This document shows, in pieces, positions 29,774 through 44,388 of a stretch of 64,000 nucleotides of DNA. Both the position numbers and the translations under genes were made by a program. This stretch comes from Escherichia coli. Lineage in GTDB: Bacteria > Pseudomonadota > Gammaproteobacteria > Enterobacterales > Enterobacteriaceae. Numbering within the stretch: position 1 is the first letter of the stretch; each line of letters opens with the position of its first letter. The stretch lies in assembly GCF_030013595.1 (NCBI RefSeq), contig NZ_CP122768.1; one strand, given 5' to 3'. Under the pieces are notes generated by a model. That model saw only the letters and a program-made list of their open reading frames with translations, made no database searches and was not told where the DNA came from.

Positions 29774-29947
29774 CGCTAAATAATAGAGCAACCTTTAATA
29801 ATCTTCTGCTGAATAAAGATTGTCTCATATATTAATTTTATGAGATTTTTTTAGGATTATATCAAGGAGAAGAAACGAACTTATTAAGCTAGAATAGCTG
29901 CGGGTGCTTGAGACTGTTTGTCTCAGGTATTCACCGAAAGGCAGACA

Positions 29948-30012
29948 GAGAAAAGCCCCACCTGACTATAAATCAAAGTGAGGCTACCCTATGCCTGAAC
30001 ACCATAAGGTTA
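29948..30012 (-). ncRNA. sokA: Candidate Sok-type antisense RNA of the hokA locus (approximate ends)
   Basis: Minus strand opposite the mokA start and leader carries a TTGATT -35-like element and a short hairpin plus U-tract; placement is by analogy with hok/sok. Confidence 0.35.
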
Positions 30013-30203
30013 GCCTCTTACTCGTTGGAAATCAACACAGGAGGCTGGGAATGCCGCAGAAATATAGATTACTTTCTTTAATAGTGATTTGTTGCACGCT
30101 TTTATTTTTCACCTGGATGATAAGAGATTCACTGTGTGAATTGCATATTAAACAGGGGAGTTATGAGCTGGCGGCATTTTTAGCCTGCAATTTGAAAGAG
30201 TAA
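29991..30203 (+). CDS. mokA: Mok-type overlapping reading frame, in-frame N-terminal extension of hokA
   Basis: 70-aa ORF MPEHHKVSLLLVGNQHRRLGMPQKY... whose last 50 codons are hokA. Confidence 0.5.
   Translation: MPEHHKVSLLLVGNQHRRLGMPQKYRLLSLIVICCTLLFFTWMIRDSLCELHIKQGSYELAAFLACNLKE
30051..30203 (+). CDS. hokA: Hok-family type I toxin (small membrane peptide)
   Basis: 50-aa ORF MPQKYRLLSLIVICCTLLFFTWMIRDSLCELHIKQGSYELAAFLACNLKE; single transmembrane helix. Confidence 0.8.
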   Translation: MPQKYRLLSLIVICCTLLFFTWMIRDSLCELHIKQGSYELAAFLACNLKE

Positions 30204-30335: not shown

Positions 30336-30367
30336 AAAAAAATCCCCGCCAAATGGCAGGGATCTTA
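30336..30367 (-). terminator. Rho-independent terminator of cspA
   Basis: Minus-strand hairpin ATCCCTGCC...GGCGGGGAT followed by TTTTTTT, just after the cspA stop. Confidence 0.6.
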
Positions 30368-30390
30368 GATTCTGTGCTTTTAAGCAGAGA

Positions 30391-30603
30391 TTACAGGCTG
30401 GTTACGTTACCAGCTGCCGGGCCTTTAGCGCCGCTTTCGATGGTGAAGGACACTTTCTGACCTTCGTCCAGAGATTTGTAACCATCGTTCTGGATAGCAG
30501 AGAAGTGTACGAACACGTCTTTAGAGCCATCGTCAGGAGTGATGAAGCCGAAGCCTTTGTCAGCGTTGAACCATTTTACGATACCAGTCATTTTACCGGA
30601 CAT
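30391..30603 (-). CDS. cspA: Major cold-shock protein CspA
   Basis: 70-aa [41 protein letters not shown]... Confidence 0.95.
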
Positions 30604-30762
30604 AGTGTATTACCTTTAATAATTAAGTGTGCCTTTCGGCGATATGGCGTGCTTTACAGATTTTGAAGCGTTAAAGGAATGTGCACTACGAGGGGTATCA
30701 ACGATAACTCTTGAAGGGACTTGCCTTACTACACTGCTTTAATGGTCTGTACGTCAAACCGT
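30604..30762 (-). promoter_or_regulatory. cspA long 5' untranslated leader (cold-box region)
   Basis: About 159 nt between the inferred start ACGGTTTGACGTACAGACC and the ATG; long-leader architecture of cspA is established knowledge. Confidence 0.65.
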
Positions 30763-30800
30763 TGATGTGCATTAAGCCACGCATTGGCGGGTGATGCAAC
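30763..30800 (-). promoter_or_regulatory. cspA sigma-70 promoter
   Basis: Minus-strand TTGCAT (-35) and CTTAAT (-10) with 17-bp spacing, AT-rich upstream. Confidence 0.6.
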
Positions 30801-42036: not shown

Positions 42037-42042
42037 AATTCG

Positions 42043-42072
42043 AAATGCCTGCTCAGCGAGCAGGCTTTTTTG
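42043..42072 (+). terminator. Rho-independent terminator of proK
   Basis: GCCTGCTC-AGCG-AGCAGGC hairpin followed by TTTTTT. Confidence 0.65.
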
Positions 42073-42124
42073 CATTTGTAGCTCATGAGGATGAGAACCT
42101 CCGGGGGCAGGGAGGTTCGACTCG

Positions 42125-42232
42125 ACGTAGGCCTGATAAGACGCGCCAGCGTCGCATCAGGCAACGGCACCGCACTTATTGTTGGATGCGGCGTGAACAC
42201 CTTATTCGACCTACACACCACACATTTCCCTG
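42125..42232. repeat. REP elements (BIME-like) downstream of proK
   Basis: GTAGGCCTGATAAGACGCGCCAGCGTCGCATCAGGC plus a degenerate second REP (GGATGCGGCGTGAACACCTTATTCGACCTAC). Confidence 0.55.
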
Positions 42233-42744
42233 CCAAATTTTCGCCCCATATCTCACTATCCATTAACGGATTTGTGACAGAAACCATTGTCTTTTTTTAT
42301 ATTTGCTTAAATCTTTTTTTGCGTTACTTATGGCTGGCGCTGGCATTTTCCGCTGTGCGTTTTAGCGTTCATGGTATTAATCGCTCAGATATCCACCTTT
42401 TCCTCAGATTTTTTTCACTAAATGCATAAAACTTAATCACCAATTGTTGCTAAATATTAAGCTGATTGTTCTGGTCATGTTGGAGTAGCACAAATTTCTC
42501 TGCTGCAAATAGCTGTTTGAAGTTTTTTTAATCTTTGTTTGTGGATTCTCACCGTTGGTGTAAATCCCGGTTGGCTGTATTGACGTTTTCACATTCTGTT
42601 GACAGATTGTAGGTCACGAGGGGCATTTTATGGAGGATCCGCACTGTTACACTGATGTTAATTAGTACGGCATCCCCACCTCATAACGTTGACCCGACCG
42701 GGCAAAAAACAAAAAAGGTCAGGCAGCGACAACCCACTGCAAAG

Positions 42745-42772
42745 GGTTAAAACAACAAACATCACAATTGGA
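42745..42772 (+). promoter_or_regulatory. CA-rich element in the dppA leader (candidate GcvB sRNA pairing site)
   Basis: AAAACAACAAACATCACAA just upstream of the dppA ribosome-binding site; GcvB control of dppA is established knowledge, the exact pairing is not verified. Confidence 0.45.
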
Positions 42773-42780
42773 GCAGAATA

Positions 42781-44388
42781 ATGCGTATTTCCTTGAAAAA
42801 GTCAGGGATGCTGAAGCTTGGTCTCAGCCTGGTGGCTATGACCGTCGCAGCAAGTGTTCAGGCTAAAACTCTGGTTTATTGCTCAGAAGGATCTCCGGAA
42901 GGGTTTAACCCGCAGTTGTTTACCTCCGGTACTACCTATGACGCCTCTTCCGTGCCGCTTTATAACCGCCTGGTTGAATTTAAAATCGGCACCACCGAAG
43001 TGATCCCGGGCCTCGCTGAAAAGTGGGAAGTCAGCGAAGACGGTAAAACCTATACCTTCCATCTGCGTAAAGGTGTGAAGTGGCACGACAACAAAGAATT
43101 CAAACCGACGCGCGAACTGAACGCCGATGACGTGGTGTTCTCGTTCGATCGTCAGAAAAACGCGCAAAACCCGTACCATAAAGTTTCTGGCGGTAGCTAC
43201 GAATACTTTGAAGGCATGGGCTTGCCGGAGCTGATCAGCGAAGTGAAAAAGGTGGACGACAACACCGTTCAGTTTGTGCTGACTCGACCGGAAGCGCCGT
43301 TCCTCGCTGACCTGGCAATGGACTTCGCCTCTATTCTGTCAAAAGAATATGCTGACGCGATGATGAAAGCCGGTACACCGGAAAAACTGGACCTCAACCC
43401 AATCGGCACCGGTCCGTTCCAGTTACAGCAGTACCAAAAAGATTCCCGTATCCGCTACAAAGCGTTTGATGGCTACTGGGGCACCAAACCGCAGATCGAT
43501 ACGCTGGTTTTCTCTATTACCCCTGATGCTTCCGTGCGTTACGCGAAATTGCAGAAGAATGAATGCCAGGTGATGCCGTACCCGAACCCGGCAGATATCG
43601 CTCGCATGAAGCAGGATAAATCCATCAATCTGATGGAAATGCCGGGGCTTAACGTCGGCTATCTTTCATATAACGTGCAGAAAAAACCACTTGATGACGT
43701 GAAAGTTCGCCAGGCTCTGACCTACGCGGTGAACAAAGACGCTATCATCAAAGCGGTTTATCAGGGCGCGGGCGTGGCAGCGAAAAACCTGATCCCGCCA
43801 ACCATGTGGGGCTATAACGACGACGTTCAGGACTACACCTACGATCCCGAAAAAGCGAAAGCCTTGCTGAAAGAAGCGGGCCTGGAAAAAGGCTTCTCCA
43901 TCGACCTGTGGGCAATGCCGGTACAACGTCCGTATAACCCGAATGCTCGACGCATGGCAGAGATGATTCAGGCAGACTGGGCGAAAGTGGGCGTGCAGGC
44001 CAAAATTGTCACCTACGAATGGGGTGAGTATCTCAAGCGTGCGAAAGATGGCGAGCATCAGACGGTAATGATGGGCTGGACTGGCGACAACGGGGATCCG
44101 GATAACTTCTTCGCCACCCTGTTCAGCTGCGCCGCCTCTGAACAAGGCTCCAACTACTCAAAATGGTGCTACAAACCGTTTGAAGATCTGATTCAACCGG
44201 CGCGTGCTACCGACGACCATAACAAACGCGTTGAACTGTACAAGCAAGCGCAGGTGGTGATGCACGATCAGGCTCCGGCACTGATCATCGCTCACTCCAC
44301 CGTGTTTGAACCGGTACGCAAAGAAGTTAAAGGCTATGTGGTTGATCCATTAGGCAAACATCACTTCGAAAACGTCTCTATCGAATAA
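42781..44388 (+). CDS. dppA: Dipeptide ABC transporter periplasmic binding protein
   Basis: 535-aa ORF MRISLKKSGMLKLGLSLVAMTVAASVQA... Confidence 0.95.
   Translation: MRISLKKSGMLKLGLSLVAMTVAASVQAKTLVYCSEGSPEGFNPQLFTSGTTYDASSVPLYNRLVEFKIGTTEVIPGLAEKWEVSEDGKTYTFHLRKGVKWHDNKEFKPTRELNADDVVFSFDRQKNAQNPYHKVSGGSYEYFEGMGLPELISEVKKVDDNTVQFVLTRPEAPFLADLAMDFASILSKEYADAMMKAGTPEKLDLNPIGTGPFQLQQYQKDSRIRYKAFDGYWGTKPQIDTLVFSITPDASVRYAKLQKNECQVMPYPNPADIARMKQDKSINLMEMPGLNVGYLSYNVQKKPLDDVKVRQALTYAVNKDAIIKAVYQGAGVAAKNLIPPTMWGYNDDVQDYTYDPEKAKALLKEAGLEKGFSIDLWAMPVQRPYNPNARRMAEMIQADWAKVGVQAKIVTYEWGEYLKRAKDGEHQTVMMGWTGDNGDPDNFFATLFSCAASEQGSNYSKWCYKPFEDLIQPARATDDHNKRVELYKQAQVVMHDQAPALIIAHSTVFEPVRKEVKGYVVDPLGKHHFENVSIE

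Follow-up and report, generated by a model that had tools for sequence, protein, structure and literature searches.

A C/A-rich element in the Escherichia coli dppA leader with the features of a GcvB-responsive translational enhancer

The C/A-rich element located directly upstream of the ribosome-binding site (RBS) of dppA is very probably a GcvB-responsive translational enhancer of the Escherichia coli dppA mRNA. On our side, this reading builds on the sequence and position of the element, its predicted accessibility and complementarity to GcvB, its conservation, and the identity of the leader to that of strain K-12, as analysed in a stretch of 64,000 nucleotides of the E. coli chromosome (hereafter the window). 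The element and its role in regulation by GcvB are already known and represent a textbook case. The segment from -200 to +20 of dppA is base-for-base the same as in K-12 MG1655, and the element is the very site of the dppA-GcvB interaction described for E. coli K-12 (Urbanowski et al. 2000; Pulvermacher et al. 2008, 2009; PMC9299463).

The C/A-rich element and its predicted pairing with GcvB

The dppA gene (positions 42781-44388, plus strand) was identified as an open reading frame for the periplasmic dipeptide-binding protein of 535 aa. Of the 5426 complete E. coli genomes, 5422 matched this stretch, with identities of 95-100%, and in these it is annotated as dppA (dipeptide ABC transporter substrate-binding protein); the local gene order is eptB, tRNA-Pro, REP/naRNA4-like repeats and dppABCDF. 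The spacer between proK and dppA is 744 nt in size (42037-42780) as compared with 910 nt in MG1655, the difference being located outside the leader. The spacer also contains a REP-type repeat on the minus strand (42130-42211) that matches the Rfam family naRNA4 with 65.3 bits, and at which the nearest genome carries the annotation 'RtT sRNA'. No Rfam family matched the dppA leader itself in our scan, the only nearby hits being the tRNA-Pro and this naRNA4/REP-like element upstream.

The element corresponds to the 19-mer AAAACAACAAACATCACAA on the plus strand (42749-42767), in which 18 of the 19 bases are C or A. It spans positions -32 to -14 relative to the dppA ATG (42781-42783) and is followed by UU, the Shine-Dalgarno (SD) sequence GGAG (42770-42773), another 7 nt and the start codon. 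The SD sequence was recognised from the sequence, and UGGAGCAGAA shows little or no variation across all orthologues. Four ACA triplets, starting at 42752, 42755, 42759 and 42764, are contained within 15 nt (42752-42766), and the last of these ends 3 nt before the SD sequence. The initial annotation had placed a CA-rich stretch immediately 5' of the dppA RBS, at about 42750-42768; the stretch is indeed there and ends 2 nt before GGAG, while its true span differs by one base. Both the minimum free energy (MFE) and the centroid fold of the leader left the element unpaired, and the unpaired probability of its individual bases was 0.77-0.99, so that the ACA motifs lie close upstream of the SD sequence in a predicted unstructured context, as in ACA-motif enhancers.

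For the pairing analysis, we used the GcvB sequence from MG1655, the identity of which was confirmed as Rfam RF00022 (199 bits). The gcvB gene was not found inside the 64-kb window in the Rfam scan; its presence in this strain is to be expected from other E. coli genomes, with 5425 of the 5426 complete genomes carrying the gene, at an identity of at least 99% in 5389. Pairing of GcvB with the dppA leader, which the initial annotation had proposed as a check, was predicted to be favourable. The best accessibility-corrected interaction was between GcvB nt 62-82 (region R1) and positions 42751-42770, with a total energy of -15.9 kcal/mol that is composed of a hybridisation term of -24.6 kcal/mol and opening costs of +7.7 kcal/mol for GcvB and +1.1 kcal/mol for the mRNA; on the GcvB side, nt 63-64 and 67-70 have a low unpaired probability in the folding model. 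The duplex predicted by RNAduplex was longer (42751-42774 with GcvB nt 57-82, 24 pairs, -29.5 kcal/mol) and covered the SD sequence, the extension to 42774 using GcvB nt 57-60. Taken over both predictions, the complementarity amounts to 20-24 contiguous pairs with one bulge and energies of -24.6 to -29.5 kcal/mol, placed at -30 to -7 from the ATG and hence at the RBS of a peptide transport gene. This location, the accessible target and the favourable net energy are those of a GcvB R1 target.

Sliding windows displayed a sharp minimum of the GcvB duplex energy at the element, which was the best site along 42560-42860, and dppA ranked first among 36 neighbouring annotated start regions both by hybridisation energy and after inclusion of the opening costs. 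Running RNAduplex on full-length GcvB and the whole leader had produced a 200-nt 'duplex' full of large loops, which was meaningless, and it was replaced by the sliding windows and the accessibility correction. The exact R1 consensus CACAACA (PMC4104026) is absent from 42740-42780, where the nearest sequence is AACAACA at 42751-42757 (6 of 7 positions). The consensus is statistical rather than a requirement, and the validated Salmonella dppA site also lacks it.

Chance expectation and conservation of the start region

Base composition did not distinguish the element from the rest of the 64-kb window. Clusters with at least 18 C or A in 19 nt occurred twice, as compared with 3.1 +/- 1.8 expected from first-order Markov simulations, and four ACA triplets within 15 nt were found in three places, as compared with 3.2 +/- 2.0 expected, so that neither C/A-richness nor ACA clustering exceeded chance. 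Nor did the raw R1 duplex energy single out the dppA site within the window, where a scan of both strands recovered 44 distinct sites that were as good or better (dppA z = -3.3); raw pairing of this kind is promiscuous since R1 is G/U-rich. The strongest raw R1 duplex of the whole window (-34.6 kcal/mol) is located at 45820-45850 on the minus strand, antisense to dppC, and presumably involves a strand that is not transcribed, providing an example of how unspecific raw duplex energy is. The order of the bases nevertheless matters for pairing within the start region: the dppA segment from -45 to +3 yielded -24.5 kcal/mol against R1 and composition-keeping shuffles -14.2 kcal/mol, a loss of about 10 kcal/mol.

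Conservation was examined within E. coli and across orthologues. The region from -40 to +10 of dppA, including the element, was identical in 5414 of the 5422 E. coli genomes, whereas the start region of yhjV, a control of similar length, was identical in only 2519 of 5404 genomes, and for a wider query of 701 bp upstream of dppA no more than 1883 genomes reached 99% identity. The orthologue set consisted of 80 Enterobacteriaceae genomes with a DppA at least 90% identical, among which there were 50 distinct variants of the start region. Across these genomes the block CAUCACA-(N2-4)-GGAGCAGAA-N3-AUG is almost invariant, while the stretch preceding it differs in its exact bases and remains rich in C and A. 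The R1 duplex energy averaged -25.2 kcal/mol over the 50 variants (range -20.6 to -32.6 kcal/mol), as compared with means of -14.1 kcal/mol for the adjacent upstream segment and -15.7 kcal/mol for shuffles, with the E. coli R1 being used throughout.

These data bear on the suggestion that the element is a chance low-complexity run without function, as the chance-level frequency of such runs in the window might lead one to think. We attach practically no probability to this reading, which is already refuted by the invariance of the element within E. coli, by the persistence in the 80 Enterobacteriaceae genomes of an equally placed block that is C/A-rich and complementary to R1, and by published mutagenesis, in which the orthologous 15-nt deletion removes 96% of the expression (PMC3879156). 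Chance is exceeded when position at the RBS, ordered complementarity to R1, and conservation are taken together.

The conservation also extended into the coding sequence. In 79 distinct orthologous sequences, the synonymous sites of dppA codons 2-5, 8-11, 14 and 16-17 were invariant or nearly so, including positions with the rare codons AGU, UCA, GGG and UUG, while codons 18-44 varied normally. This suggests that a constraint at the RNA level may reach about 50 nt into the dppA coding region (42784-42831, plus strand, codons 2-17). Such invariance up to codon 17 could reflect a long-range contact between the leader and the start region, or a second regulator.

Correspondence with published GcvB targets and proposed mechanism

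Three components of the main reading, namely GcvB-dependent repression, enhancement by the ACA motifs and the binding of Hfq to the leader, are taken from the literature. For both E. coli and Salmonella, the dppA mRNA is listed among the verified R1 targets, supported by RIL-seq, CLASH and MAPS data (Miyakoshi et al. 2022, PMC9299463 Table 1). Together with the predicted pairing, this status supports the suggestion in the initial annotation that the CA-rich stretch is a target of GcvB on a peptide-transporter mRNA. GcvB represses dppA fusions, Hfq, GcvB and dppA form a ternary complex, and the phage-encoded mimic AgvB competes for R1 (Tree et al., PMC4104026), while deletion of gcvB renders DppA constitutive (PMC3658540). 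The mechanism for gltI and dppA has been described as the masking of a CA-rich translational enhancer (PMC9988348).

The dppA site of Salmonella Typhimurium (Sharma et al. 2007; Yang, Figueroa-Bossi & Bossi 2014, PMC3879156) is in the same gene and at the same position. The footprint coordinates of Sharma et al. 2007 were taken via citing papers, and the results of Pulvermacher et al. 2008 are second-hand as well. In both species the site comprises 15 nt with four ACA motifs and ends 3 nt before UUGGAGCAGAA-N3-AUG, and 14 of the 15 bases are the same (ACAACAAACAUCACA in E. coli and ACAACAUACAUCACA in Salmonella), with a single A/U substitution at 42758. The Salmonella segment aligns exactly with positions 42752-42766 of the window (ACAACAAACATCACA), and the published dppA-GcvB region, against which the initial annotation had asked for a comparison, is thereby in the same place. 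The neighbouring hairpins and an A-rich tract are common to the two leaders, while the second dppA codon is CGU (Arg) in the E. coli window and AGU (Ser) in Salmonella.

The functional data on the enhancer come from the same system, the host for the mutagenesis being Salmonella and not E. coli (PMC3879156). The four ACA motifs inside the GcvB target segment also serve as a translational enhancer; deletion of the 15-nt segment lowers dppA expression by 96%, and the expression loss can exceed 100-fold when the ACAs are randomised, as achieved with the mutagenic oligo ppN85, which randomises NNNNNNTNNNTCNNN directly before ATTGGAGCAGAAGAATG (PMC3879156). In reporter constructs, C/A repeats have likewise been found to boost translation (PMC5934652).

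Taken together, the element AAAACAACAAACAUCACAA is assigned two roles, as an enhancer of translation and as the core of the R1 target of GcvB, on the basis of its sequence, predicted accessibility, match to Salmonella and invariance in E. coli. The unstructured C/A stretch with its four ACA motifs 5' of the SD sequence would promote binding of the 30S subunit and thereby a high rate of DppA synthesis. Under glycine or nutrient-rich conditions GcvB would be made via GcvA, and its G/U-rich, single-stranded R1 region would pair with about 20 nt of the leader (42751-42770), possibly extending into the SD sequence. Hfq would assist by binding to the leader, probably at an A-rich hairpin loop situated about 35 nt upstream. 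The resulting duplex would mask both the enhancer and the RBS, such that initiation of translation is blocked. Within this scheme, we infer where exactly the duplex begins and ends in E. coli, where Hfq binds and where the mRNA starts.

The element might instead be an enhancer only, sequence-specific or unstructured and acting through its ACA motifs, ribosome standby or contact with S1, in which case the complementarity to GcvB would be without regulatory effect in E. coli. Irrespective of GcvB, dppA expression requires ACA motifs near the SD sequence (PMC3879156), reporters are translated better with C/A repeats (PMC5934652), the element is predicted to be fully unpaired, and R1 forms many equally good duplexes by chance. 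However, the main explanation itself includes enhancer activity, which is no alternative to it. Furthermore, R1 targeting of dppA is listed as verified for E. coli (PMC9299463), DppA is constitutive without gcvB (PMC3658540), and interactome studies recover GcvB-dppA chimeras. We consider a pure enhancer very unlikely also in view of the approximately 10 kcal/mol of pairing energy lost upon shuffling of the segment, and of the GcvB effect and compensatory R1/target mutations already reported for the orthologous system.

There is an even slighter prospect that the element is chiefly a site for another factor, such as Hfq or another G/U-rich sRNA of the type of the DapZ-like 3'UTR sRNA. DapZ of Salmonella has an R1-like seed and also represses dppA and oppA, which speaks for such a factor; yet any sRNA with such a seed would act on this site just as GcvB does, and so adds to the GcvB reading rather than replacing it. 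With regard to Hfq, the dppA leader is bound tightly (PMC2515195, PMC4104026) and contains A-rich sequence, but the element itself is rich in ACA and not in A-R-N triplets, and the clear A-R-N run is found in the hairpin loop at 42705-42716.

Regulation through an enhancer that is masked by GcvB places dppA among other known systems. The mRNAs of oppA, gltI, argT, livJ and livK also encode periplasmic binding proteins and are likewise targeted by R1 at C/A-rich single-stranded sites. The position relative to the SD sequence differs among these targets, and the dppA site abuts the SD sequence and may overlap it. The gltI site reportedly lies far upstream of the RBS. AgvB, an anti-sRNA of EHEC phage, also carries a C/A-rich sequence of the R1 consensus and competes with the dppA mRNA for GcvB and for the distal face of Hfq (PMC4104026). 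AgvB and the SroC sponge are decoys that relieve repression, unlike the dppA mRNA, which is itself regulated; neither was detected in the window in the Rfam scan.

Other parts of the dppA leader and a possible target in yhjV

The 5' end of the dppA mRNA is probably located near 42616, as judged from a promoter-like pair of hexamers, which would result in a leader of about 165 nt. The putative promoter (42580-42608, plus strand) was recognised from invariant hexamer blocks and consists of a -35 sequence, TTGACG (42580-42585), a 17-nt spacer and an extended -10 sequence, TGaCAGATT (42600-42608). Every orthologous leader from the Enterobacteriaceae has the two blocks unchanged, and the spacer is variable. 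The conserved pair was missed by a simple consensus promoter scanner, which reported only a distant GTGACA/TATATT at 42274-42303. The 5' end near 42616 agrees with what we take to be the E. coli dppA start site. It also agrees with a fragment of the Salmonella dppA mRNA that begins at -163 (PMC2515195), and the 'long leader' of the initial annotation is accordingly plausible.

The first part of the leader contains a nearly invariant block, GGUCACGAGGGGCAUUUUAUGGAGGAUCC (42612-42650, plus strand), in which column identities were mostly 80-99% among 73 distinct leaders. A candidate upstream open reading frame in this block, with an AUG at 42630 behind the SD-like GAGGGG, was rejected as not conserved, the AUG being ACG, AAG or AGG in many genera. 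We also discarded a long-range pairing of the block with the SD sequence, the AUG and codons 3-5, as obtained with RNAalifold for the whole leader, for which all pairs were invariant (covariation term -0.06, consensus energy -7.2); support was likewise weak when sub-regions of the leader were analysed by the same approach.

Further downstream, the MFE and centroid folds contained a hairpin (42687-42728, plus strand) with an A-rich loop of 17 nt, GGGCAAAAAACAAAAAA (42700-42716), and the same hairpin was obtained for most orthologues. The loop, which precedes the GcvB site by about 35 nt, includes four A-R-N triplets, AAA AAC AAA AAA (42705-42716), in agreement with the (A-R-N)n pattern of at least four single-stranded triplets near an sRNA site. 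Since Hfq binds the dppA leader tightly on its distal face (PMC2515195, PMC4104026), the loop is a candidate distal-face site; binding to the leader is published, and its placement at this loop is putative. The covariation support for the hairpin was modest: 81% of the cells were paired, 5 of the 10 pairs had changed on both sides, including compensatory changes from GACC/GGUC to GGCC/GGCC and from C-G to U-A in the stem, and 30 of 500 shuffles reached the score. This result is in part explained by a 1-nt deletion in the 3' arm in some genera, which MAFFT leaves ungapped. A second, small hairpin, AACCC-ACUGCAAA-GGGUU (42731-42748, plus strand), is located directly 5' of the C/A element and was present in the MFE and centroid folds with pairing probabilities near 1. 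It occurs in some genera only, the region being gapped in 59% of the aligned leaders.

Second among the 36 start regions, with an accessibility-corrected GcvB energy of -12.5 kcal/mol, was yhjV, a gene of an amino-acid transporter family (CDS 49766-48495, minus strand). The gene starts with AUGCAGCACAACACACUACCG (49746-49766), and codons 3-5 hold the R1 consensus CACAACA (CACAACAC). The start region is polymorphic within E. coli, as reflected in its performance as a control above. In the literature searched, nothing beyond a genome announcement connected yhjV with GcvB, and by its sequence yhjV may represent an unreported R1 target of GcvB. The Rfam scan of the window also recovered the 5'UTR of the cspA thermoregulator (30336-30763, minus strand), a sok-like antitoxin beside hokA (29902-30053) and a pair of rdlD RNAs, antitoxins that adjoin the ldr toxin genes (50128-50193 and 50611-50676).

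As far as we have searched, the literature contains no dissection of the A-rich hairpin, the 5' block or the synonymous constraint. We tentatively propose, as a possibility that we regard as rather doubtful when taken as a whole, that the leader comprises undissected modules, consisting of an A-rich hairpin that may act as a landing pad for Hfq, the 5' block of about 40 nt and the synonymous constraint up to codon 17, and that yhjV would be an unreported R1 target.

The dppA site stands out in 64 kb by its position at the RBS, its accessibility and its conservation, and would not do so by composition and raw duplex energy alone. Its value is that of a positive control, in which one of the founding examples of sRNA control of ABC-transporter mRNAs was recognised from raw sequence. 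Modest leads for those who study Hfq and GcvB are the A-rich loop of the hairpin, the invariant block at the 5' end of the leader, and yhjV.
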